Source: Raillietiella orientalis (lineage: Eukaryota). Taken from it: a stretch of 51,610 nt of DNA. Position 1 is the stretch's first letter. The number at the start of each line of letters is the position of its first letter. The notes under the pieces are model-generated. The model made no database searches. It worked only from the letters and a program-made list of their open reading frames with translations, and had not been told where the DNA came from. The translations under genes and the position numbers were made by a program. Below, in pieces: positions 794-51,550 of this stretch. Location: positions 124,001 through 175,610 of the forward strand of contig JAYWIR010000107.1 of assembly GCA_036172245.1 (NCBI GenBank), in the 5' to 3' direction.

Positions 794-877
794 CGCACGC
801 GTTTTTGGTCAGCACCCGTGAGCGAAGCCAAAACTAGGTCTTGTGTGGATTGGAAGTGCGGCCGTTGGAAGGCAGAA

Positions 878-2509
878 ATGCCTAAAGACGCCGCAGTACC
901 TGCGACGGGAGACGTGAGGCCCACGTCTCCCCAGCCTATGGAGGTGGGGTCATGCCCCACCAGAAAATCAGCCCCCGCCACCCCGGAGAGGGCGTGGAAC
1001 AAGGTGGCCGCGGCGGCTCCGCCGGACGTGGTCACCGAAGTGCAGGCCTACATAAAGGAGGGCTACAAACCAGCCCTCCTTTACAAGGTAGGAAATCTTT
1101 ATTCACCGCTTACAACGCGGAAATTTGGAAACGCCATCCGTAGGATGGGAATCTCTGACGAGGAGATTCTTTGCTTCTCGATTCGGAGCGGCAGGCAGTT
1201 CGCGGAGCTGATCTGCAAAGATGCAGCGCTCACACACAAACTGCTCTACACGCCCGTTTCGTTCGAAGGGCGGAATCTCCTCCCACACACGGTGGATCAC
1301 TCTATGGTGATCCACGTCACGGATACAACGGTGCGGATGACCGATGAAGCCATCCGCACTGAAATCAACAATTTCGCGGAGATATACGCGATGTGGTCAA
1401 AGCCCAACGCCTTTACTTATTGAGGCGCATTCAGTGGGCGAGTTGCCGCGCGCGTAACTCTCCGCGAAAACAAAGTACTTCCCCACGAGCTTAAAGTCAA
1501 CGACGAGCTCGTCGACGTCTGGTACGTGAAGAAGAAAAAATACTGTGGGCTGTGCAACACATTCGGGCATCTTAAAAAAAGATGCCCGGATGCCACATGC
1601 GCAACCTGCGGTGCGAAGGGCCACACTAGTGCTGTGTGCCCGAAAAACGCCGCGACAACGCCTTCAGCCCCTTCGAGAAATAAGGGGAAGAAGGCAGAAT
1701 TTACAGCAAAGAGCGATGGAAAGCCGACTTCAGAAGAAGTCGTGCACAAGGAGCAGGAGCCTCAAAAGGAGACTTCTGATCCAAATGCCGACGAGGAAGG
1801 CTGGAAAATCGCTTCTGGCAAAAAACCCAAACAAATTGAAAACAAAACAAAAAAAATCCCCAGAAAAAACTCAAAAAATCAGAACGCGAGCGTTCCGAAA
1901 TAGCCCGCGGTCGGCAAACCAAAAATTCCGCCGCGCGACTTCATAAAGGAATGCCGCGTTACAATCGAGCGCGTTTCGTCGATCGAGCGTCGATCGGCGA
2001 ACGCGACTCCCGCAACCGTCGCGAACGCCGCGGAACCGCCGCAGGAATCCTGCGACAAACACGCGAGCAGCAGCGACGAGAAAAACTTCGCGAAGGCGGC
2101 GGAGGAACTCGCGGCCACCTTAATGCATCCGCCTAAGGCTGCAAAGAAGGCCGTCAGACGTCCGGCGGAAGTTAAGGGCCCGGAAACTTCCGGGTTCGAG
2201 GCGGAAGCCGGAAACCCTCCCACCGTCGCCCTTCCGAAGAGGAAGGCGGGCCGGAAGTCGCGCAACCCTATGCGCGTCGCTCACCCTCAGGCTGAGGAGG
2301 AGGAGATGCGCTCGGATAGCGAGGAGGCGATGTCCGCAAGGTCGCGGGATCCCTCTATCGACAGCATCCGGTCGGTCCTTCCTATCGACCGCAGTCCCGC
2401 TGCAGACGTTCCGTTCGTTGCCAAAACGCCACCACCGCAGATGGACAACGACCAGCCGCGTCCCGAACACGAGGCGGCAATACACACGCCACCACCATCA
2501 TTAGTATGA
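878..2509 (+). pseudogene. A1 ORF1 (gag-like nucleic-acid binding protein, two CCHC zinc knuckles), two in-frame stops
   Basis: ORF track pieces 593..1423, 1526..1903 and 2123..2509 share one frame; CGLCNTFGHLKKRCPDATCATCGAKGHTSAVC. Confidence 0.88.
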
Positions 2510-3391
2510 TGCGTGCAATTGCCTCTTGCCGGCAGCTGCGTATAGCCTGTTGGAATGTCAACGGGCTGCGTAGCGAAAGCAAGAGGCGTAGCGTTGCCGA
2601 CACCCTGCGACCTTTCGACCTGGCACTTCTTCAACAGGTGCATGACCTCAGAGCAGAGAACGTCCAGCAAATCGAGAGGCTCACAGGACGGAGGATACTT
2701 TGGCGTGGTGGAGGAGACCACTCCCGCGGAGTGGCCTTCCTGCTAAAGCCTGCCGTCGTCAATGCGGTGCGCAGTGCACAGTTCGACGAGGAAGGTCGAG
2801 TCGGACAACTTGTCCTCAAGTGGTCCGAATCGATCGAACTCGTAGTCACGAACCTGTACGCACCTTGTACCAGCCACAGGCGCGCAGAACACACTGCGTT
2901 CTTCGAAGCCCTGCGGCGAGACTGGCTGGCCGAAGCAGGCGTGCGGAGGGCGCATCTCATAGCGGGAGACTTCAACGTTCCCCTGCTGTCGAAAGCGCCC
3001 GACATACGAGCACAATTGGTCAACGAGTTGTGTGCAGCTATACACACACGCAACTTGTTGGCCGATGAAGCCGGGGCGAGAAGCAGAATCGACCACGTGT
3101 TCCTCGATAACCACTTGTGTACGCGGAAGGGACTCGAGGAGCAATTGCGTCGGAGCTGTCCGATCACCCTCGGCTAGTGATCAACATTCATCCGCGAGAC
3201 AGAGGTCCACCCTCCGAAGCGTGGCGCCTGCCGGGGAACTGGTTGCTACTTGCAGGACCGCGCGAACATCTGCGCGCATTCCTGCGTAGTTGCGAACTGC
3301 AGACTCTCGCTGACTGGAACAAAATAAAACGCTCAGTCCGAGAGTTCTGTGACCAGTTTCCCCACCATCAACTTCCTCCAGGATTCGGCGA
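2506..3391 (+). pseudogene. A1 ORF2 N-terminal APE endonuclease, frameshifted and interrupted
   Basis: WNVNG, LQQ (QE motif), NLYAP, GDFN, RIDHVF, SDH motifs in ORFs 2506..3177 and 3117..3422. Confidence 0.9.
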
Positions 3392-6330
3392 TGCCACTCG
3401 GATACGCCGGGACGTTTATTAAAAACATTTCGACGGTCAATACAGAACGTGTTACAAGGCCCCACTGACAGCCACGCAATACCGGAACTTCCGGGACACC
3501 AGGACGCAGCCCGGTGTGGCTCTCCTCGGCAGTGGAGGGGGATATGGGAGAAAACAAAAATTAAGTAAAAGAGAAAAGCAAACCACAAAAAAAAGTTTGG
3601 AGGGCCGCAAAGGGATCACAGAAAACTGCTATGAGCGCCCATCCTTTGCAGGATGCCTTCTAGTTTCATTTTCAGTTTTCCTAGATAGGGCCATCGGGTA
3701 GCTCTCTGCAGGAAGCGAGAAGCATACTCGATGACGTCCCTCACGATGCAGTCTTCATCTTCGTCATCACCCCAGGCCGCCACGATACCACGAATGCAGC
3801 AAAGTGCTGCCAGGGCTGCGGCTGGACTGAGGGCGTCCCGCACGAAGACTGTAAACGCATCTAACGTGGCCACCATCCGGTATCCCAAAAGCCGTTTTAA
3901 GACGATCCCAAAGAATGCGGACGGCAGGGCAATCAACTAACAGGTGGGGGAGCGACTCCCGCTCCCCACACCTGGCACATGCAGGATTTACTCTTCCCCG
4001 CGTCCAGTGGAAGCGGAGCGCGTTGCAGGGTAGACCCCAATGCAGCCACAGAAGCGCCGATTCTTGCCACTTCAGGGGAAGAATCCTGGATCCAAGTAGA
4101 ACCGGGGTCCACTTCAGGTCATCCAATCGAATGCCGAGCAGCTCGCTCCATCTTCTTAATCCATGCGGCTTGAGACTAGGGCTCGTTGCATCTGTCAACT
4201 CTCCCATGGTCCAGCCGCTCATCATCTTCTCTCTGCCTGCGATACGGCAGCAGACTTGCCACCTTGGCATCCGGGTTTCGTGAAGCGCCCTTTGGAGGAA
4301 GGGCATCGCCGTAAAAAGGGGTGTGCCTTCCGCCCACGTGCAACTCGGTGGAAATTCAAGAATTTCACGGAGAGTCCGGCGGGCGTAAAAGCCGACTAGC
4401 AGGCACTTCATCCGGTCTTCGCAGCTCTGGTACTGCTTATTCCAGGTGCCAGGAGTCTCTTCCAGCCAAGCGGAGGAGTTGGCAGGTCCACAAACCATCC
4501 AGTCGTTCTCCTTTGCCAGGGTTGCCATGCGGCCGAGCAGTAGACCGCATCGTCGAATCTTCCGGCCAGAGCACAGAAGAAACGATGCGAGTCCTTCGCA
4601 GCGGGACACAAGCCTGGCCAGGAGGCGGGCCGGAATGCACCAAGCGGTGCTCCACAACTTCGCTGCGATGACGAGGGTCCGCCATCGCAGCTGGATTTCC
4701 ACGCGCTCCAGCGTCACGATGCTGAGACCGCCGTCCCGACGCGGAGCGCATAAGTCCTTCAAAGGGACACAAGGCCTCCCCTTGCCCCAAAGAGCTATTC
4801 GGAGGAGGTAATTCGTCCGCTTTTTTGATTCCACGGGGGCGGGGCAAACAAAAAGCAAGGAACGGAGGATGGGGAGAGCGAAGGCGCTCCAAACCGCGGC
4901 CCGTTCCGGCAAATGAAACTTGCCTTCCAGGAACGGGCCGATCGCCGTCTCGACTTTTTGGAGGCAGTGGACCACGCTTCCGCAGGGGAGAAGTCCCCCA
5001 ACGGCACACCGAGGTACTTGATGCACCTCACCGTGGGGATCCCCAGACGGACCCAGTCCTGCTGCCCTGCCCACGTCACTCGAACTGGCGCCACTGACGA
5101 CTCCGCCCTGTTAACCTGTAATCCGGCCCCACGGCTAAGCAGGTCGAAGAAATCTCCGACCGCCATCGCCGGGGTGGACATAGGTAAGAAGAGCAGAAGA
5201 TCGTCGGCATACGCCGCTACGGCTGGCGTGCGGGGCACGAGCTCGGCAAGGGGGCCGAAGTCACCCTGTACGCTCTCAGCACCAACTCAGTGTAGGTGTC
5301 TAAGAGCAGGGGGCTGAGGCTGTCGCCCTGCCTCATGCTTCGCCGCAGCGCCACGCCATACACCTTTTGTCCACTGAAAGTAATTGAGATCATCGCGTTC
5401 CTCCAGCAAGAGCGCAGGTAGGTAATCAAGGAGGGTGGGAAGCCCATGCGTCCCAGGAGCTCCAAGAGGAGTTCCTGGTCAACACAGTCGAATGCCTTAT
5501 GGAGGTCGACTGCGATCGCTAAGACCCCTTTCCCGCATGAGGGTCCCTACCCTGTCCCACTGGCGACCCCAAAGTAGGGTTGAAAATTTTCCCTTTCCCT
5601 TCTTACTTACTCCGCTGCGCGTGCATCCATGTGCTCGCGAAGAAGAGGTTGTCCTCCATACTTCGCCCGGGAACAGCGTAATTCTGCTCCGGGCCAATTA
5701 TAGAATCGGACATTTGCTTCAATCGCGACGCCCACAGCCCGGCAATCAACTTGGCGTCGGTGTTCAGAATCGTGATCGGACGCCAGTTGCAAAGTTTCCT
5801 GAGGTCTCCTCCCTTCGGGCGGAGCCTCACTTTGGCTGACCGAAACGAGGCGGGAACATCGCCTTCGTCTCGGATTCGCCTTGTCAACTCGAGCACCAGG
5901 GGGGCCAGCTTTTCCGCGAAACTCTGAAAGAACTCTGCGGGCAAGCCGTCCTCCCCTGGCGCCTTACGCCTCTTGAGCCTTTTGATACCGGCGAGAATTT
6001 CACCGGTCGAGAAAGCCTCATCGAGGCTTTCTCTCTCCTCCTCCCTTATCGCCACGCAACCACTCATGAGCAATCGCCGCGAGTCGTCTTGTTCGGGTGG
6101 TGTTTTGGCGTAAAGGGAGGAATAAAAACACCGCACGGAATTCCGTACAGCAGACGGGGACGAACGTTCCCGGCCCAGGTCATCCAGCATGCTGCCTGAC
6201 CCGGATTGCAAGGCTTGTCGCTCGGCTCCGGTTGGGTATTCGGCCAGGCGACGGACATTGGGGTTCCTCTCGTGACGACGCGCGTGCAAATACGCGCGTT
6301 CGTTGCGAGCCCTTCGCCGAAACCCTTGGC
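3392..6330 (-). mobile_element. Family D LINE copy D1, 3' part (linker, RT, C-terminal zinc finger, 3' UTR, terminal hairpin)
   Basis: KAPGEDG, WRPITILN, QGDSLSP, YADD, KYLG, CARCGERESLPHLLVDC; U-rich 3' UTR then AATAAA-CGTCCCGGCGTATCCGAGTGGCA. Confidence 0.9.
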
Positions 6331-6420
6331 GAGTGGACGTGTGTTTCCTTCGCTCCCGAGTGAGTCGACAGGAAGCGGTTTTTTCTTGTGTTGTTTGGTG
6401 TGGAACATCGTTGGTGTCCG

Positions 6421-8168
6421 ATGGCAGCGATGCCTGAGGACACCACGATGGAGGTAGGTGTGGAAGAGGCTTGCCCACCTTCACAGCCTACAGAATCAGG
6501 GGCGTCCGCCCCGGAATCGCTCTCGCAGCCCATGGCGAGGAGCTGGAGCGCCATGGTGGCCGCGCCGAGCGCGGTAACCGTGACCGAGATGGCGGCCTAC
6601 CGGGCAGCTGGTTACAAGCCCAGCTTGGTATACCAGGTAGGCCCCTTATTTGATGGAAAAACGGCACGCGTGTTTACGAAAGCGCTGCAAAACGCCGGAG
6701 TAAGAGAACAAGATTTTGACGGTTTGTCCGTTCTCAGCGGAGGTCAGCGAGTCAAGGTGGTGTGCAAGGAGATCACCTTGGCTCAGACTCTGATCACCAA
6801 CCCGCTGAACGTCGACGGCCGCAAGATCTTGCCGGTGACGATGGACCGCTCCGTGGTGGTCCATCTCACTGGAATAACGAGCCGTATCACTCGCTCTGCG
6901 GTAGCACAAGAACTTCGGAAGTTCGGCGAGGTGCACGCGCTGTGGCCTAAGACAACAAACTTTCAAGGCTTCAATAGCCATTTCGGAAGCCAGGCTGCAG
7001 CGCGGGTGACAGTGAGTAAGGATTGTGGGCTTCCTTACAAGCTGGAGGTCGCGCAAGAGAGCGTGGACCTCTGGTACGTGGGAAAGCCCCGGTATTGCGG
7101 CTACTGCGATACCGTAGGACACCTTCGCAAGGGGTGTCCTAACATCCAATGCGACATGTGCGGGGAAAAGGGCCACGTTCGACGTGTGTGCCCAAAACGC
7201 CCTATCCCGGTTCCTCTTGCCGCTAAAAAGGCGCAGGGTAAACGCGCACTAAAGGTCAAAAAACCTAAGGCGGACGCTGGCCGGCTGAAGCTGCCAGATC
7301 CTCAACCTCCAAAAGAGAAGACGGAGGATAAACCTTCCCAAGAGGCGGAAGGTGAAGAGGGCTGACAACATGTAGCAGCCAGAAAAAACATTAAAGCTCC
7401 TTGAAAGGAAAAGAAAGAGAAGCCGGCCGGTATGGTAAATAAACCCGGGCCGCGTTCGAAAACCATACGCGAGTTCACGGTGGCACTGGAACGTATCGTC
7501 GTACCGGAAGATGCCACCCGGGGCGACGAGCCTCCCCTCGCCGTTTCCGTCGCGCCCGAAGTTCGTGACGGCGAACCCTCTGTGCAAACAGAGGGTGAGC
7601 CGCGCGACGCGCCGGTCGACACCGAGGACGCCGCGTTCGCAAAGGCGGCGGAGGAGCTCGCGGCCACCCTGGCGTACCGTGAGAACCCCTCACGCAAGGA
7701 CGTGCGAAGGTCGGCTCCCGCGAAAAAGGCCCCCACAGGTGAGTCGGACGTGGGATCCGGAAGTGCATCCTCCTCCTCGGAGGCACCCCCCAGGAAGTCG
7801 GGACGCAAGTCCCAAAAACCCAGCTGGCGCCTCCCCTCCACCAGCGAGGACGAGAAGCAGGAAGCTAGCGGTAGCGTTGTAATCCCGGAGGGGGAACTCC
7901 CACGCTCGGAAGCCGTCGAGCCGGCCACCCCCATGGAGAAGGGTGAGCAGGGGGGCGAAGTGCTCCCTGCAGTCGCGAGCCTGAACAGCTCGCCCCCATG
8001 GAGGAGGGCCAACAGGTAGGCGCGACCCCACCTGAGGGTGACCCGCTCGAAGGGCCGTTACCCATGGAGGAGGGGGACCAGGTGCACGCAGCGCCTGACC
8101 CTCCTCCTCCACCTAGCGTCCCGCCAAAACAGGTGGCGGACGCCGCATCGCCATCTTCCCAGGATTAA
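6421..8168 (+). pseudogene. B1 ORF1, two CCHC knuckles, disrupted
   Basis: CGYCDTVGHLRKGCPNIQCDMCGEKGHVRRVC; stop at 7363-7365 replaces a Trp codon; terminal TAA 8166-8168. Confidence 0.88.
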
Positions 8169-9879
8169 CACCTGGGCTCGCCAGTCGCCGTCGGATTCGC
8201 GCCGCCTCTTGGAACTTCAACGGGCTGCGCGACGACGGTAACTGACGAGATACGGCCGACACCCTGCGTGAGTTCGACCTGGCCCTGCTGCAGGAGATCA
8301 ACGTGATCACCGCAGCAGACGCCCAGGAGATCGAGACGATCGCGGGGGGTCGGCTGTACTGGCGATGCGGCCTCCGCAACACCTGCGGGGTCGCGTTCTT
8401 CGTGAAGCCGGCCATCGACGCTGCCGTGAAGTGCGTGCGCTTCGATGACGACGGTCGGGACGGTCAACTGATTCTCAGCTGGTCCGACTCGATCGAACTG
8501 ATCGTCACGAATGTGTACGCCCCCAGCGGTAAACAGGGATACAGCGACCGTACCAGGCTGCTGGAATCCCTGAAGCGCGACAGGCTGGCGCACACGAACG
8601 TGCGAAAGGCTCACCTGATAGTTGGAGATTTCAATCTCCGCCTGCCAGCAGGTGAGCCAGAAACACAAGACAACGCGATGAATGAGTTGTGCGCCGCCAT
8701 GCGTGCGCGCAACTTGTTCGCGGGTGAGAGGGGAATGGTCCGCAGCATCGACCACGTCTTCCTCGACGCTGACCTGTGTTCACGAGTCGGCAAACGGGTG
8801 AGGGTTGTGTCGACGTTGTCGGACCATTCCCGGTTAATTTTCGAGATGCGGCCTCGCGACAAAGGACCGCAATCCAGGGATTGGCGTCTGCCGGGGGACT
8901 GGACGCGACTCTCAGGTGCGAAGAAACACCTTCGCGAATACCTGAGAGGCGTCACGCTCCGGATTCTCCAGGATTGGCACATTTTTAAGCAATTGGTCCG
9001 CGAGTTCTGTGAGCAGTTCCCCCTGGATCGCCTGCCCTGCGGATTCCGCGACGGTGCTCGCAACCGTCGGGCCTATCTACAGGCTCGTTGGTACGAGAGA
9101 ACCCCTAATGTCCGTCGCCTGGCCGAGTACCGCGCCGGGGCCGAATGCCAAGCCTGACAATCCGGGTCGGCCAGCTTGCTGGACGACCAGGGCCGGGAAT
9201 GTTCGTCCCCGGCTTCGGTACGGCATCTCGTGCGGAGTTTTTATTCCTCCCTTTACGCCAGTCAGCACCCGGATCGACACGCTTCTTGGCGCTTGCTTCC
9301 GGATGGCGCCCCGGCAATAGGGGAGAAGGAGATGGAAAGCCTCGAAGAGCCTTTTACCACCGGCGAAATTCTCGCCGGTATCAAAAGGCGCAAGAGGCGT
9401 AAAGCTCCAGGGGAAGACAACTTGCTCGCGGAGTTCTTTCAGACCTTCGCGGGAGAGCTGGCACATCTGCTGCCTAAGTTGATCAGGCTGATCCGAGACG
9501 AAGGCGATGTTCCCGCCTCGTTACGGTCATCCAGAGTGAGGCTCATTCCGAAAGGGGGAGACCTCAGGGATTTGAAGAACTGGCGTCCGATCACGATCAT
9601 GAATACGGACGCCAAGTTAATAGCAGGGCTATGGGCTTCGCGACTGGGGCAGGTGGCAGAATCCGTTATTGGCCCGGAGCAGACTTATGCTGTTCCCGTG
9701 CGAAGTATGGATGCCAACCTCTTCTTCGCAAGCACATGTGTGCACCTGCAGAGAAGAGGAAAGAGAGGGATAGAGAAAGTCGGCAACCTCACATTGGGGC
9801 GGCCAGCCGGGCTGGAAAGGGACCCCCGGGCGGGGAAGGGGGCCCTTGCACTCGCAGTCGATCTCCACAAAGCGTTCGA
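8168..9879 (+). pseudogene. B1 ORF2 5' part (APE + N-terminal RT)
   Basis: WNFNG, LQE, NVYAP, GDFN, SIDHVF, SDH, KAPGED, WRPITIMN, DLHKAFD. Confidence 0.9.
9866..9879 (+). repeat. Target-site duplication copy 1 (CACAAAGCGTTCGA) flanking family C insertions
   Basis: 13/14 match to 15439-15452 and 44437-44450; directly abuts the C1 3' end. Confidence 0.88.
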
Positions 9880-15344: not shown

Positions 15345-15438
15345 CGCTGCATGATCGACCACCGAACCACACGACGCTTGCACTGGGGGAGACTTCCTGG
15401 CACGAGGAGCACGGCGAAAACACGTCCGCCATAGAGCG

Positions 15439-15452
15439 CACAAGGCGTTCGA
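15439..15452 (+). repeat. TSD copy 2 (CACAAGGCGTTCGA) between tandem C1 and C2
   Basis: Lies exactly between the C1 5' end and the C2 3' end. Confidence 0.9.
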
Positions 15453-17543: not shown

Positions 17544-17580
17544 TAATAATTAATAAACGTCTTGGCGTATCCGGGTGGCA
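17544..17580 (+). mobile_element. 37-bp remnant of a family D 3' terminus
   Basis: TAATAAACGTCTTGGCGTATCCGGGTGGCA matches the D ends at 3392, 36646, 38917 and 47028. Confidence 0.8.
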
Positions 17581-31315: not shown

Positions 31316-31403
31316 TATCCTCAGGGATTCAGAGTGATGTAAAGTGGGTATGTTGTATGAATGTGATTGTAGAATGAATGTGTTTTAAAAAATGGGAAAT
31401 AAA

Positions 31404-38916: not shown

Positions 38917-40490
38917 TGCCACCCAAATACGCTAGTACGTTTATTAAAAACATTTCGACGCTCAATACAGAACGTGGTACAAGGCCCCACTGACGGCCAC
39001 GCGATACCGGAACTGCCGGGACACCGGGACGCAGCCCGGTGTGGCTCTCCTCGGCAGTGGAAGGGGATGGGAGAGAAAACAAAAATAAAATAAAAGAGAA
39101 AAACAAAATACAAAAAAAAGGTTGGAGGTCCGGGAAGGGATCACAGAAAACGGCTGGGAGCGCCCATCCTTTCCAGGATGCCTTCTAGTTCCATTTTCAG
39201 CTTTCCTAGATGGGGCCATCGGGTAGCTCTCTGCAGGAAGCCAGAAGCCTACTCGATGACGTCCCTCACGATGCAGTCTTCATCTTCGGTATCACTCCAG
39301 GCCGCCACGATACCACGAATGCAGCAAAGTTCTGCCAGGGCAGAGGCTGGACTGAAGGCGTCCCGCACGAAGACAAGACTGAAGACACATCCAACATTGC
39401 CACAATCCGGAGGGCCGTTTTCAGACGATCCCAAAGAATCTGGACGGCAGGGCATTCAACTAAGAGGTGGGGGAGCGACTCTCGCTCCCCACATCTGGCA
39501 CACGCATGATTTACTCTTCCCCGCGTCCAGTGGAAGCGGCGCGCGTTGCAGGGTAGACCCCAATGCAGCCACGGAAGCGCCGATTCTTGCCACTTCAAAG
39601 GAGGAATCCTGGATCCAAGTAGAACCGGGGGCCACTTCAAGTCATCCAATCGAATGCCGAGCAGCTCGCCTCATCTTCCTAATCCACGCGGCTGGAGACT
39701 AGGGGTCGTTGCATCTGTCAACTCTCCCATGGTCCAGCCGCTCATCATCTTCTCTCTGCCTGCGATACGGCAGCAGACTTGCCACCTTGGCTTCCGGCTT
39801 TCGTGAAGCGCCCTTTGGAGGAAGGGCATCGCCGTAACAAGGGTTGTGCCTTCCGCCCACGCGTTACTCGGTGGAAATTCAAGAATTTCACGGAGAGTTC
39901 GGCGGGCGAAAAAGCCGACTCGCAGGCAGTTCATCCGGTCTTCGCACCTCTGGTTCTGCTTGGCCAAGGTGCCAGCAGTCTCTTCCAGCCAAGCGGAGGA
40001 GTTGGCAGGTCCACAAACCATCCAGTCGTTCTCCTTTGCCAGAATTGTCATGCGGCCGAGCAGTAGACCGCATCTTCAAATCTTCCGGCCAGGGCACAGA
40101 AGAAACGATGCGAGTCCTTCGCAGCGGGACACAAGCCTGGCCAGGAGGCGGGCCGGAATGCACCAAGCGGTGCTCCACAACTTCGCTGCGATTGCGAGGG
40201 TACGCCATCGCAGCTGGATTTCCACGCGCTCCAGCGTCAGGATGCTGAGACCGCCGTCCCGACACTGAGCGCACAAGTCCTTCAAAGGGACTCGGGGCCT
40301 CCCCATGCCCCAAAGAGCTATACGGAGGAGGTCCTTCGTCCGCTTTTTTGATTCCACGGGGGCGGGGCAAACCAAAAGCAAAAGGCGGAGGATTGGGGCC
40401 GCGAAGGCGTTCCAAACCGCGGTTCCTTCCGGCAAGTGAAACTTGCCTTCCAGGAACCGGCCGATCGTCGTCTCGACTTTTTGGAGGCAG
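38917..40490 (-). mobile_element. Family D copy D3, 3' portion, fused to C3
   Basis: Colinear with 3392-4967. Confidence 0.9.
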
Positions 40491-43400
40491 GTACTTGAAG
40501 TACCTCACCGTGGGGATCCCCAAACGGACCCAGTCCTGCTGCCCTGTCCACGCCGCACAAACTGGCATCACGGACGACTTCGTCCTGTTCACCGTAAGTC
40601 CGGTTCCCCGATGCAGCAGGTCGAAGAACTCCTCGACCGCCGCAGCCGGGGTGGACATAGCGAGCAGCAGCAGAAGGTCGTGCGCGTATGCTGAAACGGC
40701 CGGCGTACCGGCACGGTCGTGCGGCAGGTGCGCCAGGGTTCCCCTGTACGCTCTCAGTACCAACTCAAAGTAGGTACAGAAGAGCAATGGGCTCAGGTTT
40801 CCCTGCCGGATCCCACGCCGCACCGGCACGACGTGCACCGTCTGCCCGCTGAAAGTAACACTGATGAGCGCGTGACGCCAGCAGGAGCGCAGATAGGCCA
40901 CTAATGAGGCCGGGAATCCCAAGCGTTCCAGAAGCTACAGAAGGAGATTCTGGTCGACGCAATCGAATGCTTTCTGCAAGTCGATTGCGACCGCAAGGGC
41001 TCCCTCCTTCACTCGACCATACAACCCCTTGCCGACGCACGCACCGGAATTCCGGCTGCGCACCAAGCTCCTTTCATGCTGGAGCTCTAGGCAGGTGGAA
41101 GCGTGGAACAGGTTCGCCTCCATGCTTCGCCCGGGAACAGCATATGTCTGTTCCGGGCTGATGAAGATGTTGGCAACCCGTCCCAGACGCTCTGCCCAAA
41201 CCTTGGCCACCAAGTTGGCGTCCGCATTCACTATTGTGATGGGACGCCAGTTGTTCATGCTCCTCAGATCTCCTCCCTTAGGGAGGAGCCGCACCTTTGC
41301 CGAACGAAACGTGGCGGGAACGTCACCTGTTTCGCGTATCAGCAAGGTGAGTTGCTGTACCAGGGGGGTAAGCTCAGCCGCGAAAGTTTGATAAAACTCC
41401 GCGGGCAGTCCGTCCTCCCCTGGAGCCTTTCGCCTCTTGACCTTTCCGATGGCCGAGAGGATCTCGTCCATCGTGAAAGGCTCGTCGAGGGTCTTTCTCT
41501 GCTCCTCCCCGATCGCTGGAGTGCCTTCCGCAAGCAGGAGTCGTGAGACGTTCCTCTCCGGAGGTGCCCTGGCATACAGGGAGGAGTAGTAACTCCGCAG
41601 CAGGCCGTGGATTTGGGCAGGTGCCGAGTGCTCCTGGCCCTGATCGTCCAGTAAGCTTGCCGATCCGGACTGCCAGGCTTGCCTCTCGGCTTCCGCTTTG
41701 TATTACGCCAGCCTGCGGATGTCGGGGGTCCTGGTGTAACGACGGGCCTGCAGGTAGGCTCGTTCGTTACGAACCCCGGTCCCAAAACCCGTAGGTAGGC
41801 GGTGCAGAGGAAACTGGTCGCAGAACTCCTAGACCGACCGCTTGAATCGGTCCCAATGCTGGAGTGTCCGCAGACTGAAGCTCCGTATGAACGTGCGGAG
41901 ATGTTCCGCCGCGTACGGGAGCTTCAGCCAGTCCCCTGGAAGACGCCACGCTGACGAGGGGGGACCCCTGTCGCGCGAATGGATCTCGAGGACTAGCGGG
42001 CGATGGTCGGACAGCTCGCACGGTAACTTGCCGCGCCTGCCCACGCGAGGGCACAGGTGCTCGTCAAAAAACACGTGGTCAATACTGTCTTTCATTCCCG
42101 GTGCACTGGCCAACAGATTACAGGTGTGCAACGCCATGCACACCTCGTTGACCAGGTCACGCTCGGGATTCTGCTCATCTGACTTCAGGCGAACGTTGAA
42201 ATCGCCTGCAACCAGATGGGCATTCCGCACGCCTGCGTCGGTCAGCCAGTCTCGCCGGAGGGCAAGGAAAAACTCTTTCCTCGCCCTCCTGTTCATCAGG
42301 TCCTTGCCGCTCGGTGCGTACACGTTCCTGACGATCAGATCGATCGAGTCGGCCACCTGAGAGTCAGCTGGCCGACACGACCGTGATCGTCGAACCGCAC
42401 GCCCCGACCCGCGGCCTCGACGGCTGGCCGAAGCAGGTAGGCGACACCGCAACTCTTCGCTCTCCCAAACCTGTACCATAGCCGCACTCCGGAGATCCGT
42501 TCGATCTCTTGCGCTTGTTCTGCAGAGATCACGTGGATCTCCTGCAGCAGCGCAAGGTCGTAGGACTCCAGAAGGGCGGCCATGTCTCGTCTCCTGCCGG
42601 CGTCTGTCATGCCGTTCACGTTCCAAACGGCGATGCGCACACGACGGAGGGAGGAGATTCCCGGCATTACTGCTGGGAAGATTAAGGTGTGGAGGAGCCC
42701 TCTTCTTGCGAGGCGGGCGGGATGTCCATGAAGGTTCCGGCCTTCTCAGGCAGCTGAGGCACCTGTTCGGACTATACCCCCTCCATCCCCTCCGTGTCCG
42801 TGCGTGGGAGTCTCTCGGGCGACGGGTCGCGAGAGTTTCCTACGCTCATGGCACCCTCGCTTGCGGAAGCCATCTCTTCCCCTTCGACGGGGGAGACGAG
42901 CTTCCTTGGCTTTGTGGACTTACGTCCAGCCTTCTTGCGCGGTGCCGTAGAAACGGAGGCTGCGCTTCCGGCCTCCACCTCAGGGTCGGAAGTGGGGGAC
43001 TCCTGAGGGGAGACCGGACGCCTTACGGCCTTCTTGCCAGCCTTGGAGGGTTCTGGCTGCAACGAGGCTGCCAGCTCCTCCGCGGCTCGCGCGAAGGCCA
43101 CGTAATCGATGGTGGTGTCGATGACGGACGCCGCCGCCGGCTCGATCCCCTCGCTGTGCACTGTGTCAACAGAGAGGAGGTCAACGGTTGCGGCGAGTTC
43201 TTTCCGGCAGCGTTCGGCAACATCGACAACGCGTTCGAGAACGACGCTGCACTCTTTAATTATCGCGCTACCCTGCTCTTTCTTCTTCTGTTGGACGGCG
43301 ATTTTCTTTTGCATCCTCCTCTCCTTCTTTGATTTTTTGGCTGTTGCCACTTGCCACTCAGTCTTTTGGCCGGCTCCCTCAACTTTTTCGGCGTTGGTCG

Positions 43401-44436
43401 CCGGGGTCTCGGGTGCGGCCTGGGTCTTGGGCGCGGGTGGCACAGCTTTCGCGGCAGCTTTCGCCGCCAGTCTTTTCTGCAGAAGCCGGGCACGTTTTTT
43501 AAGGTTTCTCTTGGAAACCACCCGCACTGCTGCTTTTGGGCACACCTCCCTCGTGTGACCCATTGTGCCGCATACTTGGCACTGCACTTTGGGACACCTC
43601 TTTTTGAGGTGGCCCGACGTATTGCAGAAGCCACAGTATTTCGGCTTCCCCACATACCAGAGGTCGACGGTTTCGCCTTCGACCACCAGTTTGTGGGGAA
43701 GAGTGCAGCCCTCCCGAACGGTCACGCGCGCAGCAGTAAGGCCGTGTTGCAGCCCCGTGTAGTCCTCGAAAACACTAACTTTCGTCCACTGCGCGTGGAC
43801 CGTTCCAAACTGTTCCAAAGCGACGCGAACCTGTTCTTTGCGCATTCGCGCGGTCACGCCTAACAGGTGGACCACCATGCTGTGGTCCGCCGTAGTGGGG
43901 AGAAGCCTGCGCGTCCCCATCACAACGGGGGTTTTAAGCAGTCGTTGGGCCAGCTCTGTATGTTTGCAGATGACCTCAACGTACTGACCCCCGTTGCGGA
44001 TGGTCATAGTGCTGAGCTCCTCCTCTTTCACAACGAGAGCGCGCATGCCCTTCAAGAAGGCGCGCGCGCTCTCTAAAGAATATAAATTGCCTACCTTGTA
44101 GAACAATGAGGGGTTGTACCCCTCCTCTACATAGGCCGACAGTTGCGCCGCGGCTGCAGGCGATGGCGCCGACACAACGGCGCTCCACGCCCGCGCTGCA
44201 GCGGAGACTCATTCTGGGGGGCGGATGCCCCCACCTCCATCGCTTCTAAGGGCGACGTTGCCGCCGCCCCCTGGCTCTCCATCGCCTCTGGGGGCGGCGT
44301 TGCCGCTGCCCCCTGGCCATCCCTGGTGGTCGTGTCAGGCATCGCTGCCTGATCGACCACCGAACCACACGACACTTGCACTGGGGGAGACTTCCTGGCA
44401 CGAGGAGCACCGAGAAAACACGTCCACCCTAGAGCG
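40491..44436 (-). mobile_element. Family C copy C3, 5' end to RT KYL motif
   Basis: Colinear with 11500-15438; same 5' terminus abutting the TSD. Confidence 0.92.
42667..44342 (-). pseudogene. C3 ORF1, best-preserved ORF1 in the window (467 aa open)
   Basis: ORF 42772..44175 with CGFCNTSGHLKKRCPKVQCQVCGTMGHTREVC; frameshift near the N-terminus, stop at 42772. Confidence 0.88.
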
Positions 44437-44450
44437 CACAAGGCGTTCGA
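44437..44450 (+). repeat. TSD copy 3 (CACAAGGCGTTCGA), continuing into host RT (HKAFDCVDQELL)
   Basis: Abuts the C3 5' end; restores the RT frame broken at 9879. Confidence 0.9.
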
Positions 44451-46505
44451 CTGTGTAGACCAGGAACTCCTCTTGGAGCTCCTGGGTCGCATAGGGTTTC
44501 CACTCTCCCTGATTTCCTACCTGCACTCTTGCTGTCGAAATGCGATAATTACCGTCTCTTTCAGCGGTCACAAGTTTCATGGCGTGCCGGTGCGACGGGG
44601 CATAAGGCAGGGAGATAGCCTCAGCCCCCTGCTCTTCAGAACCTACTTTGAGTTGGTGCTGTGAGCGTACAGGATGACTTTGGCCCCATTGCCGAGCTCG
44701 TGCCCCGGCACGCCTGCCGTAGCAACGTACGCCGAGGATCTTCTGCTCTTGTTGCCAATGTCCACCCCGGCAAAGGCGGTTGCAGACTTCTTCGAGCTGC
44801 TCAGCCGCGGGACCGGACTGCAGGTTAACAGGGCGAAGTGGTCGGTTGTGCCAATAGGTGCGGCGTTGGCAGGGCAGCGGGACTCGGTTTGTCTGGGGAT
44901 CCTTACGACGAGGTGCTTCAAGTACCTTGGAGTGCCGTTGGGGGACTACTCCCCTGCATAAGCGTGGTCCACCTGTCTCCAAAAAGTCGAGACGGCGATC
45001 GGCCAGTTCCTGGAAGGCAAGTTTCACTTGCCGGAACGGGCCGCGGTTTGGAACGCCTTCGCGGCCCCCATCCTCCGCCCCTTGCTTTTTGTTTGCCCCC
45101 CACCGTGGAATTCAAGAAGAGGACGAAGGATCCTCTCCGTATCGCCCTTTGGGGCAAGGGGAGGCCCCGAATCCCAATGAAGGACTTGTGCGCTCCGCGT
45201 CGGGACGGCGGTCTTGGCCCCCTGACGCTGGAGCGCGTGGAGAAGCAGCTGCGGTGGCGAACCCTGGCCATCGCAGCGAAGATGTGGAGCACCCCTTGGT
45301 GCACTCCGGCGCTCCTCCTGGCCAGCCGTGTGTCCGGTGCGATGGACTCGCGTCTTTTCTTCTAAGCCGTGGCCGGAAGATGCGAAGATGCGGCCTTCTG
45401 CCCGAGCGCATGGCAACATTGGCCAAGGAGAACAGCTGGATGGTTTGCTGCCCCGCCAACTCCCCCGCCTGGCTGGAGGAGAATATTGGAACGTGGGCAG
45501 TGGTTAACCAGAGAAACCACGAGACGTGCAATCGTCTCCGATGCAGCCCCTACGAACGCTGCACGCCGCGGAATCTCCTGGAGAGTCCAGCAAGATGCAG
45601 GTGGGCATAGACGACCTGCCTAGCTACGGCGCTGCCCTTCCTGAGGAGGGCACTTCACAGCAGCCGGACGACGTGGTGGCAAGTCTCCTGCTGCATCGAG
45701 GGACGGGAGAAGTTGATTAGCGGCTGGAAAACAGGAGAACTGGCCGACGCCACGACCCCGAGCGTCCAGCCGCGAGGGTTATTAAGATGGGGCGAGCTGC
45801 TCGCTATCCCCAGGGATGAGTTGAAGTGGCCCCCGGTGATGAAAGAATCCAGGATCCTGCTTCTCAAGTGGCAAGATTCGGCGTTGCTCCTGTTGCACTG
45901 GGGTCTACCCTGCAACGCGCGGCTTCCACTGGACGAGGGGAGCTGTGGATCCTGCGTGTGCCAGGTGCGAGGAGCGGGAGTCTCTCCCCCACTTTATTGC
46001 GGAGTGTGCTGCCCTATAGCCTCTTTGGGAACGGTTTGGGACGACCATCGGGCTCCCTGCGGGCAGCACTCCCAGAGAGGTTCTTCGGCCCCTCTTCGTG
46101 AAGGACGCACTGCAGCCCGCCGCAGCCATCGCAGCCTTGTGCTGCGTCCGTGGCATCGTGGCGGCATTGAGCGACGCCAACGACGAAGAAGTGGGTCCAC
46201 AGGCGAGAGATGTCGTCCCGTATGTCCAACGCTTCTTGCGAAGAGCTGCCGGATGGCCCCAATTGGGGAATATGCAGACTGAGCTCTAGGGCTTCTTTCG
46301 ACGGATGGGCCCTCCTCACAGCGACCAGTGATCCCTTCCCCGCCCTCCAACTTCTTTTTGTTTGTTTCTTTTTATTTTTCTTTTTGTCTTAACCCCATCC
46401 CCCTTCGCTGTCGGGGAGTGCCACGCCGGGCTGCGTCCCGGTGTCCCGACAGGTCGCGTGTTTACGGCCGTGGTGGGGCCTCGTACCACGCATGTAGAGT
46501 TTACA

Positions 46506-46536
46506 AATAAACGCTCCGGGCGTTCCCGGATGACAA
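46506..46536 (+). promoter_or_regulatory. AATAAA plus 3'-terminal stem-loop (representative copy); putative RT recognition or 3' processing signal
   Basis: TCCGGG-CGTT-CCCGGA; equivalents at every A, C, D and G 3' end. Confidence 0.65.
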
Positions 46537-47021
46537 CGCCGAATACCCGGGGCAGACGTTGCACAGGAAACTGTTCGCGGAACTCACGGACCGAGTCCTT
46601 AAATAGGTCACAATCCGCGAGACTCTGCAGGGTGACGCCTCGCAGGAATTCGTGAAGATGTTCTTTCGCTCCTGACAGGCTCGTCCAGTCCCCTGGCACA
46701 CGCCAATCCCTGGATGGCGGTCCCTTGTCGCGCGGCGCATCTCGAATAATAACCGGGAATGGTCCGACAGCGTCGATCCAACTGTCCTTCGTTTTCCGAC
46801 ACGTGTGCACAGGTCTTCGTCGAGGAAGACGTGGTCCACGCTGCTGACCATCGCGTGTATTTCTGTCAACAAGTTGGGCGCGCGCATGGCGGCGCAGAAC
46901 TCGTTGATCGCGTTCCTCTGTGCTCCGGGCTGATCTAAGAGCATGCGGACGTTGAAGTCCCCTGCTATCAAATGCGCCTTTCGCAAGTCCGCGTCCACCA
47001 GCCATTCGCGCTTCAAGGTTG
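46537..47021 (-). mobile_element. APE/linker fragment interpreted as the upstream part of D1 (5'-truncated)
   Basis: GDFN, SVDHVF, SDH, ...QFPVQRLPRVFG| which joins to |GFGEG.RNERAYL at 6330->6290. Confidence 0.78.
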
Positions 47022-47027
47022 TCGGCG

Positions 47028-48580
47028 TTGCCACCCGGATACGCAGGGACGTTTATTAAAAACATTTCATCGGTCTATACAGAACGTGGTACAAGGCCCT
47101 ACTGACGGCCACGCAATACCGGAACTGCCGGGACACCGGGACGCAGCCCGGTGTGGCTCTCCTCGGCAGTGGAGGGGGATGGGGGAAAAAACAAAAATAA
47201 AATAAAAGAGAAAAACAAACCACAAAAAAAACTTTGGAGGGCCGGGAAGGGATCACAGAAAACGGCTAAGAGCGCCCATCCTTTCCAGGATGCCTTCTAG
47301 TTTTATTTTCAGCTTTCCTAGATGGGGCCATCGGGTAGCTCTCTGCAGTAAGCGAGAAGCATACTCGATGACGTCCCTCACGATGCAGTCTTCATCTTCG
47401 GTATCACTCCAGGCCGCCACGATACCACGAATGCAGCAAAGTGCTGCCAGGGCAGAGGCTGGACTGAGGGCGTCCCGCACGAAGACAAGACTGAAGACAC
47501 ATCCAACATTGCCACAATCCGGTATCCGGAGGGCCGTTTTCAGACGATCCCAAAGAATCTGGACGGCAGGGCATTCAACTAAGAGGTGGGGGAGCGACTC
47601 TCGCTCCCCACATCTGGCACACGCATGATTTACTCTTCCCCGCGTCCAGTGGAAGCTGCGCGCGTTGCAGGGTAGACCCCAATGCAGCCACGGAAGCGCC
47701 GATTCTTGCCACTTCAAAGGAAGAATCCTGGATCCAAGTAGAACCGTGGGCCACTTCAAGTCATCCAATCGAATGCCGAGCAGCTCGCCCCATCTTCCTA
47801 ATCCACGCGGCTGGAGACTAGGGGTCGTTGCATCTGTCAACTCTCCCATGGTCCAGCCGCTCATCATCTTCTCTCTGCCTGCGATACGGCAGCAGACATG
47901 CCACCTTGGCTTCCGGCTTCCGTGAAGCGCCCTTTGGAGGAAGGGCATCGCCGTAACAAGGGGTGTGCCTTCCGCTTACGTGCAACTCGGTGGAAATTCA
48001 AGAATTTCACGGAGAGTGCGGCGGGCGTAAAAGCCGACTCGCAGGCAGTTCATCCGGTCTTCGTAGCTCTGGTTCTGCTTGGCCCAGGTGCCAGCAGTCT
48101 CTTCCAGCCAAGCGGAGGAGTTGGCAGGTCCACAAACCATCCAGTCGTTCTCCTTTGCCAGGGTTGCCATGCGGCCGAGCAGTAGACGGCATCTTCGAAT
48201 CTTCCTGCCAGGGCACAGAAGAAACGATGCGAGTCTTTCGCAGCGGGACACACGCCTAACGAGGAGGCGTGCCGGAATGCACCAAGTGGTGCTTCACATC
48301 TTTGCTGCGATGGCGAGGGTCCGCCATCGCAGCTATATTTCCACGCGCTCCAGCGTCAGGATGCTGAGACCGCCGTCCCGACGCGGAGCGCACAAGTCCT
48401 TCAAAGGGACTCGGGGCCTCCCTTTGCCCCAAAGAGCTATGCGGAAGAGGTCCTTCGTCCGCTTTTTTGATTCCACGGGGGCGGGGCAAACAAAAAGCAA
48501 GGCGCGGAGGATGGGGGCCGCGAAGGCGTTTTAAACCGCGGCCCGTTCCGGCAAGGGAAACTTGCCTTCCAGGAACGGGC
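47028..48580 (-). mobile_element. Family D copy D4, 5'-truncated
   Basis: Colinear with 3392-4938; ORF 47253..47948 zinc-finger C-terminus. Confidence 0.9.
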
Positions 48581-51550
48581 TGGCTGCGAAGGCTTGAGGA
48601 ATGACCGGAACTATCTCCACGCCCGGCGATTCTCCTACAAGCGCGACGTCAATCGCCTGGCGAAGTTCAAGGTTGGAGCTGAGAGGCAGGTCTGGTAATT
48701 CTTGTCTGTCTGCTTACTTGACGAAGAAGGCCAAGAGCACTTATCTCCAGCGCAGGTTTGATGCATTTTGCGAGATATCTGCTCCTTCTTTACGCAAATA
48801 GAACACCAGAGCGCTTTTTTGCGCAGAGTCTGCTGCCAAAGGGTGCCCCCGCGTTAAGGGGGGAGGAACCACACACCGTTCAACTGGTATTTACGATGGG
48901 GGAGATTGTCTTCGCCATCGAAAAACTGGAAAAGAACAAAGCACCAGAGGAAGACGGCCTTCCAGCTGAATTCTACCAACACTTTGCGGCAGAGTTGGCT
49001 TCCCTGGTGCTCAAATTGTGTTTGCCAATCCTTGAACGCGGGGTTGTCCCCAATTCGTTCCAGTCAGCTAGAGTACGTCTCCTACCTAAGGGAGGAGACT
49101 TGCGCAACTTTGGCACCTGGCGTTCCATCACTGTGGTGAATGCGGACGCAAAGTAGCTCTTGAAATTCTGGGCTGAGCGTCTGGGACGGGTAGCGGAATC
49201 CGTGGTCAGTCCGGAACAGACTTACGCTGTTCCCGGAAGAACCGTGGAGGCCAACCTGTTCCTCGCCGGAACCTTTTGGCAGTTGCAACAACGCGAGGCT
49301 CGGCTAGGTCGGGAAAGTCCTGGACTCTTTAATGACCTGGGGGAGGGAAGCCAGGGAGAGGAGGCGGCGCCTGGAGCCATTGCGGTCGCAGTCGATTTGC
49401 GTAAAGCTTTCGATTGCGTCAACCAGGAGCTCCTTCTGGAGCTACTAAAACGCCAAAGTTTCCCTGCCGTCTTCCTGGCGTACCTGCGTTCCTGCTGGCG
49501 CTTTGCGCTAATTAACATCAAATTCAGCAACCGGCATGTGTACGGCGTGCCGGTTCGTTGCAACATTCTGCAGGGTGACAGCCTGAGCCCCCTGCTCTTC
49601 AGCATCTACTTCGAGTTGGTGCCGAGCTCTTGTCCTGCACGTTTGCTGTGTCGGCTTATGCCGACGACCTTTGGCTTCTGTTTCACGGATCCACCCCGGC
49701 ATCGGCGCTTGAAGATTTCTTTGAGTAGCTGCACCGTAAGACAGGCCTTGAGGTAAACAGGACGAAGTCGTCGTTAGTTCTAACGGACACATCGCGAACA
49801 GCACGGTCGGAATGGATCCGCTTGGGGATCCCCACAGGCGGGTACATCAAGTACCTGGGCGTTCCGTTTGGGGACTTCTGCGCTGCAAAAGCGTGGTTCG
49901 ACCGTCTCCAAAAGGTGGAGTTGGCTATCGGCCCGTTCCGGGACAGCAAGTTTTACTTGCAGGAACGGGTTGCGGTGTGGAACGCTTTTGCGGCCCCCCT
50001 TTTCCGCCCCCTACTTTATGTATGTGCCATACCTCCTTAAATTCGACAAAGGACAAGGAGCCTCATTAGAAAAGCCCTCTGGGGCAATCGGAGGCCCCGC
50101 GTCCGTCTTAAAGACTTGTGCGCTCCACTCAGGGACGGTGGAGCTGGTCTCCTGACGCTGGAGCGCATGGAGCGACAGCTCCAATTCCGTAAACTTGCCC
50201 TTGTGGCAAAGTACTGGACCGTACCCTGGTGTGCACCTTTACGACTCCTGGCTCACAGGGCAACCGGCTGCCATGGATTGACCTCAATCCTAGTAGCCAA
50301 CGACCGCAGCCTCAGCCACTGTGGTTTTCAGCTGCAAGAATTGGTTGCCCTGCTGAGAGACAATCCGTGGTTCTCCTGCATCCCAGTGGACTGGACTACC
50401 TGGCTCCAGGAAACCGTTTCCGCATGGGCTAAAATCAACGGCTCCAGCGATGAGGACTTCTGCCTCCGTAGAGGCAGGCACGCTGATCAGCCACTGCAGG
50501 AGATCGTTAGCAGCCCACGGAAGATTCTGTTGGCCTCCTTTACCCCTCTTGCCCCGGTGCTGCCCTCCCTCAGGGAAGTTCGGAACAGCCAGCAGGAGGC
50601 TTCGTGGGAAGTGTTCTGCATCATGAAAGGCAGGAAATAATTATTAAAGGCATGGACGTATCGGGAACTAGCGGACCTTAGTACCCCGAGTGTCCTGCCA
50701 AATGGACTTTCACGCTGGTTCGCGCTGCCCGAAGTACCTCCAAAGGAGGTGAAGTTGCCAAGGCGTCGTGGGATAACGGCACCCTTCCCCTGCAGTTGCA
50801 GGAGACGGCGTTGCTTCTGCTCCATTAGGGACTGCTAAGAAGTGCGCGCTTGTCTCACTGGACACAGGGGAGTGTGGATGCTAATTGTTTAGACTGTGGG
50901 GAAAGAGAAACCTTTCCTTACTTAATCACTGAGCGCGTTGCCCTTCGCGATATGTGGGTCCGACTCTCGTCGATCGTGAACATTCCGCGTGGTTACCCAA
51001 AGAACATTTTTCGACTCCTGATGCGGGATGTTTCTCCAGATTCCGGGTGTGTAGCAGTGCTCTTTTGTATTTGCGGTATACTGGACAAGTGAACCGCGTC
51101 AAGGAGAGGACATGCCAGTCGGAATGCTATCCACTGGGCAACCATCTCCTTGGATAAGGCCTGCGGTTGGTGCCGACTAGGAAAACACTTACAAGCACTC
51201 GTCCGCATCCGTGACCGGATGCTGAGGCCTCCTCACGGCGTACCGTGATTCCTTCCCTTCCCTCCCCCTTTCGAATAACATTGCCCCCTTAGGCGTTTTC
51301 TTTTTTTTTTTTTTTAATTTTTGGTTTTCCTTGCCCCTACGCGAGTATAGAGGACTTTATCGGCCTTCGGGTTGGCAAGAACAAGTGCCGGAAGACATTC
51401 GGGCCATATGTTCCGACTTAAAAACAAGAACAACAAGTACAAAAAAAACAAACAAACTATGAAATGTTTTTGTGTATCAATATGAAATGTTTTTGTGTAT
51501 TTTGAAAAAATTTTAATAATGAAAGCCCCGGCTCACCCGGGTCGAAAAAA
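48579..51550 (+). mobile_element. LINE 3' half beginning exactly at the linker target site; interpreted as the 3' half of family A
   Basis: Starts AG(C)EGLRNDRNYLHARR; KAPEEDG, KAFD, QGDSLSP, YADD, KYLG, CLDCGERE; stop ~51246-51248; CCCGGCTCACCCGGG then A6. Confidence 0.85.
51458..51500. repeat. 20-bp direct repeat in 3' UTR
   Basis: TATGAAATGTTTTTGTGTAT at 51458 and 51481. Confidence 0.85.

Follow-up and report, generated by a model that had tools for sequence, protein, structure and literature searches.

Sequence-specific long interspersed nuclear elements (LINEs) that carry an apurinic/apyrimidinic endonuclease (APE), such as R1 and TRAS/SART, nick a multicopy target at a defined position and leave copies characterized by a precise 3' junction, a fixed orientation and target-site duplications. 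Nested clusters of LINEs that target already existing copies came to light with Zepp and ZeppL at the centromeres of green algae (PMC8226300, PMC3446292; centromeric clusters also in PMC9940879, PMC11005252 and a CENH3 preprint). Such self-targeting clusters make up the centromeric DNA of several of these algae, and the recognition of an element's own kind is left without explanation in the portions of this literature covered. According to the part of PMC9940879 consulted, ZeppL clusters consist near-exclusively of one element type and extend over tens to hundreds of kb. The corresponding part of PMC3747384 lists Zepp and L1-1_CR as the two green-algal L1 families with (A)n tails (Table 3) and names the Tx group as target-specific. 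For R1, the relevant portion of PMC5932611 reports head-to-tail tandems with 33 nt of ribosomal DNA (rDNA) between the copies and repeat insertion into a target preserved by duplication. The present work concerns a stretch of 51,610 bp from Raillietiella orientalis (assembly GCA_036172245.1, contig JAYWIR010000107.1, positions 124,001 to 175,610), denoted here as the window, in which LINEs of several lineages are inserted antisense into one another, repeatedly at two defined sequences of the second open reading frame (ORF2) of the host copy.

The window has a GC content of about 57% and contains no N, and its self-comparison yields matches throughout, on both strands, at 64-95% identity. Among its 99 stop-to-stop frames of at least 150 aa, six contain the Pfam domain Exo_endo_phos (the APE) and eight contain RVT_1, with the APE preceding the reverse transcriptase (RT) in colinear order inside the copies; since the longest open frame has 478 aa, every copy is broken. 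A profile of 5594 positions, derived from four elements reconstructed from the window itself, matches about 86% of it, and the remainder corresponds mostly to the divergent copy H and to the 5' part of G, which were found at the protein level. Scans of the window for transfer RNA genes and with Rfam gave no matches, so that no RNA-gene target is concealed in it. The window is thus occupied by a cluster made up of LINEs alone, all of them L1-like (APE plus RT) retrotransposons devoid of long terminal repeats.

Regional identity matrices distinguish at least seven lineages (A, B, D, C, F/K, G and H), in line with an earlier sequence-only reading of the window, which had proposed that several diverged LINE lineages were nested. 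The members of the A group (A, A0, A2 and A3) are 82-94% identical, B and D are sister groups (73-80%), and the C group (C1, C2 and the 5' part of E) shows 81-94% identity, with F and K related to C at 66-79%. G constitutes a lineage of its own, and H is at most 62% identical to every other lineage. Six copies (A, B, C1, E, G and H) are of full-length size.

With Tx1-, R1-, TRAS- and SART-like elements, those described here share, in this one window, insertion at a defined sequence, precise junctions and a fixed orientation. However, the targets of the former are rDNA, small nuclear RNA genes, telomeric repeats or a DNA transposon, whereas those in the window are the linker between APE and RT and the RT motif A of sister LINEs. 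The R1 double insertion, as presented in the portion of its description covered, has the same architecture as the series C1, 13 nt, C2 and D1, 7 nt, D2, although here the host is the ORF2 of another LINE and the tandem members are diverged (82% identity). Zepp of Coccomyxa ('Chlorella') C-169 and ZeppL-1_cRei of Chlamydomonas form nested clusters of L1-type elements, as in the window. As far as the consulted parts of those sources go, however, Zepp has an (A)n tail and its arrays are mostly made of 3' ends, and a single ZeppL family is involved in Chlamydomonas (PMC9940879), whereas those in the window share a conserved 3' terminus other than A (...CCGGGTG followed by a short tail), represent no fewer than seven lineages and include six full-length-sized copies. 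The sequence-only reading had not recognized the arrangement as described. This does not hold for nested LINE clusters in general, since Zepp and ZeppL are known. As for the ORF2 targets and the antisense rule, no description of LINEs targeting the ORF2 of other LINEs, or of such a rule, was found in literature searches whose scope excluded the primary Zepp papers and supplements. The exact nick sites in ORF2 and the strict antisense rule would thus be the new elements, apparently sharper than the targeting by Zepp.

Target sites in ORF2 and orientation of the inserts

The proposal that insertion recurs at defined ORF2 sequences was borne out, and two of these sequences, T1 and T2, could be delimited (the caret marks the nick). 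T1 (...TTCGGCGA^; TTCGGCG(A)^) lies between the APE and RT domains and reads, on the host sense strand in A, ...CCAGGATTCGGCGA^AGG. T2 (...GCGTTCGA^, ...AAGCGTTCGA^; in B ...CACAAAGCGTTCGA^CTG) encodes ..HKAFD and falls inside the RT motif A block. D-type 3' ends (...CCGGGTGGCA) are found at T1 of A, A2 and A3, and the 3' end of B (...CCCGGATGACAA) at T1 of D1, so that T1 is shared by two families, D and B; the 3' ends of C-type elements (...CCGGGTGAAAA) are found at T2 of B. The T1 events represented by D1 in A and by B in D1 differ in both host and insert, and D2 represents a further T1 event, marked by a 7-nt remnant of the target. For any one pair of unrelated events, the probability of lying within some 20 nt of one homologous position is about 0.7%, and such a coincidence was seen at both T1 and T2.

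Occupancy follows the exact target string. The four T1 sites carrying TTCGGCG (A, A2, A3 and D1 only) are all occupied, and none of the five lacking it is (TTCCGCG in B, TTTGGGA in C1 and E, TTTGTGG in F and TTCGAAG in G). Likewise, GCGTTCGA is present only at the T2 of B, which was entered three times, and the seven intact T2 copies whose Ala codon is GCA or GCT are all unoccupied; natural variants at unoccupied sites include TTCCGCG, GCATTCGA and GCTTTCGA. The fixed targeting hierarchy among families that had been proposed is not supported by these data, because the choice of host tracks the exact target string, D and B share T1, and D-type ends are also found at K. The nesting order is simply an order in time.

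The duplications flanking the inserts are short. That at the T2 of B comprises 14 bp, 13 of them matching (CACAAAGCGTTCGA and CACAAGGCGTTCGA), and three copies of it are located beside C1, C2 and the 5' part of E. The duplication at the T1 of D1 spans 11-12 bp, the 5' part of D1 ending in GGGTATTCGGCG, which is repeated as GGGTTTCGGCG at 6313-6323, with five extra nt at the 5' end of B. H is flanked by 12 bp (TTGACGATTCGG and TTGCCGAGTCGG) matching at 10 positions; by our own estimate, about 0.02 such repeats would be expected by chance in the 500 nt searched.

As the sequence-only reading had stated, the 3' junctions with an identifiable host are all antisense (10/10: B, C1, C2, D1, D2, D3, E, d, G and H), and the four adjacencies known from the 5' end alone (A with A0, A2 with F, A3 with D3 and E with B-right) also join opposite strands. 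The inserts hence obey an antisense rule relative to the host. The only nick motif shared by the sites, SGA^, is on the sense strand in only 55% of cases, so that for eight clearly separate events the rule has a p of about 0.008; a strand bias of the short nick motif was consequently discarded as its cause, being too weak. Strands alternate by level (A0 minus, A plus, D1 minus, B plus, C minus; F plus, G minus, H plus), and therefore a chromosome-wide cause, such as the direction of replication, does not fit. The eleventh 3' end, that of A at 51550, is followed by a 60-nt flank (51551-51610) that matches none of the element families; as it could not be aligned to the expected A-family part, A0 was dropped as a proven host of A. 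The flank preceding the 5' end of A3 (TCCACATCTTC, 37908-37923) resembles that following the 3' end of A (TCCACTGTTG, 51551-51560). A-type elements may have a nick motif of their own (...GTGGA^, host sense strand).

Two nests, a tandem series and a chimera

The features of the window are collected in Table 1. They form two nests, one of four levels and the other of two, together with an inner region of more complex history.

Table 1. LINE copies, fragments and target remnants in the window, by position.
Feature	Positions	Strand	Description
A0	1-793	-	A-family fragment, profile 2809-3604, 82% identical to A-right
A-left	794-3391	+	A 5' end to nick site T1 (...CCAGGATTCGGCGA^)
D1, 3' part	3392-6330	-	3' end ...CCGAGTGGCA adjoins A at T1
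B-left	6331-9879	+	5' end motif GTGGACGTGTGTT to T2 (...CACAAAGCGTTCGA^, reading ..AVDLHKAFD)
C1	9880-15439	-	Full-length, 5560 bp, 3' end ...CCGGGTGAAAA
T2 copy	15440-15452	+	13 nt ACAAGGCGTTCGA, between C1 5' end and C2 3' end
C2	15453-17545	-	C-family 3' part, 2.1 kb, 82% identical to C1
d	17546-17578	+	Last ~33 nt of D-type 3' end, adjoins A2 at T1
A2	17579-20180	-	A-family 5' part, profile 38-2653, ends at T1, 91% identical to A
F-left	20181-21205	+	Profile 736 to ~1840; host of G
G, 3' part	21206-25794	-	3' end (...GACCGAGTGAGAAA) adjoins F
H	25795-31434	+	Divergent, full-length-sized, 5640 bp, inside G
G, 5' part	31435-32637	-	ORF1 with sub-threshold CCHC knuckle; 5' end motif GTGCAGACGTTTTCGCG
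F-right	32638-35901	+	Profile ~1922-5200, 3'-truncated
K	35907-36645	+	C-related ORF1 fragment, profile 194-936; hosts D3 at ...GGAAGCGA^
D3	36646-37923	-	D-type 3' part, 1.28 kb, 87-88% identical to other D copies
A3	37924-38916	+	A-family fragment, profile 1610-2653, ends at T1
E	38917-44436	-	Chimeric; 3' end adjoins A3 at T1, 5' end adjoins T2 duplication of B
B-right	44437-46536	+	First 14 nt CACAAGGCGTTCGA = target-site duplication
D1, 5' part	46537-47021	-	5'-truncated at profile 2167
T1 remnant TCGGCGT	47022-47028	+	Copy of the T1 target of A between D1 5' end and D2 3' end
D2	47029-48580	-	Separate 5'-truncated D copy, 1552 bp
A-right	48581-51550	+	T1 to A 3' end (...CCCGGGTCGAAAAAA)

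The outer nest is real. The split halves of A, D1 and B, which had been proposed to pair from the outside in, do rejoin in profile coordinates, with A-right beginning at 48581 and not at 48579: A-left stops at profile position 2653 and A-right begins at 2649, the 5' part of D1 stops at 2670 and its 3' part begins at 2634, and B-left stops at 3506 and B-right begins at 3474, these overlaps being the target-site duplications. A rough estimate of our own puts the odds of three pairs rejoining by chance within about 36 of the 5594 positions at around 2e-6. Moreover, in silico excision of the inserts reopens the reading frames, as had also been claimed. For B, joining 6331-9879 to 44451-46536 produces a frame of 311 aa that spans the join, and does so only when one copy of the 14-bp duplication is dropped, because with both copies a stop appears 19 nt past the join; for D1 and A, frames of 403 and 132 aa are restored. 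Each of the restored D1 and B frames aligns as one colinear high-scoring segment pair with the uninterrupted ORF2 of G. The 3' part of D1 reaches its own T1, where B sits and where the 3' end of B adjoins D1, and A0, which lies on the other strand, adjoins the 5' terminus of A. The pairing of the D halves was right as far as D1 is concerned, but it overlooked 47022-48580, made of the 7-nt target remnant and of D2, a separate copy that is the older member of a D tandem at the T1 of A.

The innermost level of this nest had been considered a single split element, C, filling 9880-44436 at its edges. This notion was rejected, since C1 is a complete copy, C2 a second one and E a different, chimeric copy: three copies at one target, with 14-bp duplications between them. 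The order at the T2 of B is B-left, C1, 13-nt target, C2, inner region, 5' part of E, 14-nt target and B-right, in which C1 is the newest member of the tandem series and the 13-nt T2 copy is a target-site duplication left by repeat insertion. The 5' limit of C2 lies 8-9 nt beyond its own T2 position. A 42-bp unit is present twice near the 5' end of both C1 (15237-15319) and E (44235-44317), with 87-90% matches, and its occurrence at the same place in the two copies indicates a family trait and not a local accident.

E combines a 3' portion of 1.6 kb of D type (95% identical to D2) with a 5' portion of 3.9 kb of C type (identity to C1, 90-94%). Their join, near 40500, carries a 47-nt deletion, is situated 29 nt upstream of the position that corresponds by homology to the 5' end of D2, and connects families that are some 58-70% identical. 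In human cell culture, chimeric L1 copies and target deletions have been reported to arise when a new L1 complementary DNA (cDNA) resolves on a pre-existing L1. By analogy, E would be explained if a newly made D-type cDNA had resolved on a C-type copy already in place, with loss of the intervening DNA: the D-type 3' part of E, primed at the T1 of A3, would have been joined near the homologous position to this older copy of the same orientation. The likeness resides in a chimeric copy formed by cDNA resolving on an older same-orientation element; the differences are the 47-nt deletion and the two distinct families at the join of E, for which we infer the mechanism.

The inner region, from 17.5 to 38.9 kb, is not a clean nest. 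It does contain the second nest, F[G[H]], at 20181-35901, in which the proposed insertions of G into F and of H into G are both present and both antisense; restoration of the reading frames is uninformative for F and G, the joins being near the start of ORF2. At 17545/17546, C2 is connected with A2, precisely at the T1 of the latter, by TAATAA and some 30 nt of D-type 3' end sequence (17543-17579). As both sides of this junction sit at endonuclease target sites, it suggests the joining of two nuclease-made breaks with loss of the DNA between them. Also outside the simple nest are the junctions at 35901/35907 (F at profile 5200 with K at profile 194) and 37923/37924 (D3 with A3), as well as the inverted pair formed by A2 and A3, which are 91% identical, junction included. 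A2 carries a perfect 38-bp tandem duplication (2.1 copies) at 19572-19649 that is absent from A.

A probable target-primed mechanism and its rivals

The above observations can probably be integrated by assuming that sister LINEs were entered by target-primed insertion, both sequence-specific and antisense, with re-use of the targets and later rearrangement. In this model, the cluster would have grown by target-primed reverse transcription (TPRT) into pre-existing copies. As the sequence shows, the endonuclease of the element nicks the host sense strand directly after a short defined sequence, at T1 in the case of D- and B-type elements and at T2 in that of the C-type, and the new copy consequently becomes antisense to its host; the last base of the element is joined directly to the nick, and an 11-14-bp duplication flanks the copy. 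This duplication would restore the sequence upstream of the nick, so that the same site could be hit again, and such re-use of a regenerated target would account for head-to-tail tandem arrays with copies of the duplication between their members (C1, C2 and, further on, E; D1 and D2). Recognition would reside mostly 5' of the nick, because the sequence downstream would have been replaced by the earlier insert, and the choice of host would depend on its carrying the exact target string and not on family rank. The inner part would have been scrambled later, giving rise to the chimeric element, to deletions and possibly to duplications. Priming by base-pairing between the 3' end of the RNA and the target was also considered, and was dropped because inspection of the junctions by eye revealed no microhomology between the two; a similarity at 10 of 14 positions between the D-type terminus and the antisense strand of T1, likewise judged by eye, was given no weight.

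Several observations weigh against this model. The evidence comes from one window, and all the copies in it are broken. The T1 duplication in A is weak (TGGCTGCGA versus TTCGGCGA), the 60-nt 3' flank of A does not match A0, and no convincing target-site duplication was found for G in F. D-type ends are also present at a second site, in K (...GGAAGCGA^), and A-type 5' ends adjoin their hosts at three positions (profile 736, 2809 and 4313), so that the specificity would be for a short sequence and not for one locus. The 3' end of E lies at a T1 junction but its 5' end borders a T2 duplication, a combination that one simple insertion would not produce, and at least five inner junctions are rearrangements. 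Finally, the three A/D-type junctions (3391, 17578 and 38916) show a similar divergence on both sides (A versus A3, 93.1%; D1 versus the 3' part of E, 92.4%) and may be copies of one event.

This last point leads to the idea that the recurring junctions derive from a few events spread by segmental duplication or unequal exchange, the site specificity being inherited. The junctions of A with D1, A3 with E and A2 with d are indeed identical at the join and similarly diverged on the host and insert sides, the inverted pair A2/A3 includes the junction, E is chimeric and several inner junctions are rearrangements, and, in the portion of PMC9977147 covered, ZeppL clusters of Chlamydomonas expand and contract in a manner consistent with unequal exchange. 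We nevertheless consider this explanation unlikely, since one homologous site was used both by B in D1 and by D1 in A, with other hosts and other inserts, since C1 and C2, in spite of an identity of only 82%, terminate precisely at one shared 13-14-nt duplication, and since D1 and D2 are unlike in length and flanks. Nor would duplication account for at least eight distinct host sites that are all antisense. Part of the nest might instead be an artefact of assembly, generated by wrong joins between repeats that are 82-95% similar. Such a possibility would find some basis in the fact that only one public run contains words of the window (11% of those sampled), as well as in the odd inner junctions at 17545/17546, 35901/35907 and around 40500. 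It is very improbable, however, given that the outer nest is consistent, its halves being complementary and not duplicated, that the duplications are at the correct places and the frames are restored, which mis-joins would not yield, and that the window contains no N.

It could also be argued that insertion was aimed only at the region, for instance at centromeric chromatin or heterochromatin, as has been suggested for Zepp, without any real sequence preference, the sites and the orientation resulting from chance plus a weak nick bias. In a window that is nearly all LINE any insertion lands in a LINE, eight distinct host positions have been used, and the minimal shared nick motif is short (SGA^). 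Even so, the coincidence of sites at both T1 and T2, the perfect correlation of occupancy with the exact target string and the contrast between ten antisense junctions out of ten and the 55% bias of the motif render this notion quite improbable.

More tentatively, and as a reading that we regard as possible although rather doubtful, the sequence-specific insertion model could be extended to one of obligate LINE-in-LINE parasites engaged in a single-codon arms race under a mechanistic strand rule. Each lineage would read a short sense-strand string in the ORF2 of a rival, in one case within the catalytic motif A block, and insertion in antisense only would disable the host copy and build an alternating, centromere-like, LINE-only array. 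Families would escape by synonymous changes of the target (GCG to GCA or GCT at T2). The strand rule, holding over at least eight sites, would then be mechanistic, for instance through nicking of the R-loop-displaced sense strand at transcribed copies, and would not follow incidentally from a single recognition sequence.

As regards the question of how such elements find their own kind, the window offers answers at the level of single bases, namely exact nick sites in conserved ORF2 codons, an apparent recognition of upstream sequence and the antisense rule. If the rule is true genome-wide, it would be an example from nature of competition among retrotransposons in which each inactivates the reverse transcriptase of the others, it would serve as a model for the growth of LINE-only chromosomal domains, and it would provide an APE-type nuclease with a specificity of about 8-12 nt to study.

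Element ends and affinities

The eleven 3' ends in the window (3392, 9880, 15453, 17578, 21206, 31434, 36646, 38917, 46536, 47029 and 51550) form exact junctions and share the arrangement AATAAACG-YCCCGG-loop-CCGGG-TG followed by a short tail. None of the eleven has a poly(A), with no A tract longer than 6 nt. In the putative CCCGG/CCGGG stem, 85.5% of the cells pair and three pairs show compensatory changes; as 71-87 of 500 shuffles did likewise, the stem-loop is not significant and was rejected as a feature. At the opposite end, the full-length B, C1 and E copies, and in a variant form G, share the motif GTGGACGTGT(G)TTT (6333, 15429 on the minus strand, 44427 on the minus strand and 32637 on the minus strand, respectively), which may be an internal promoter or a start site.

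When compared with solved structures, the RT matched human L1 ORF2p (7e-40) and R2 proteins (1e-11 to 7e-17), the only two comparable groups. Its KAFD (motif A) and YADD align with KAFD and FADD of L1, and the APE domain weakly matches the L1 endonuclease. Among solved structures the RT is thus closer to L1 than to R2, and the elements are called L1-like. Two zinc-finger matches, of kinds that mark L1 elements of the plant and algal type, fell below the Pfam cut-offs: zf-CCHC in ORF1 (E 0.0011, 19.4 bits, cut-off 20.8) and zf-RVT at the C-terminus of ORF2 (E 0.0047, 18 bits, cut-off 27.5).

The best named database matches, at 30-35% identity, came from fish, frog, amphioxus, Closterium and land plants, with no chlorophyte protein among the named top matches, and a protein atlas returned only generic RVT_1. 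A metagenome scan with the RT alignment recovered 80 loci, all at no more than 33% identity, the P0060 contig mentioned below not being among them. The exact T1 and T2 junction strings had no match in viral contigs, and the frame that reads through the junction of B with C1, used as query in a homologue search, gave two distant matches. A search of 1.84 billion representative proteins brought up just two close relatives, the metagenome fragments P0060 (70% identity) and P0063 (64%), all other matches being at most 36% identical. P0060 is an intact RT frame of 619 aa from a public metagenome contig, 65-71% identical to C1 and E, and it indicates that living relatives of these dead copies probably exist.

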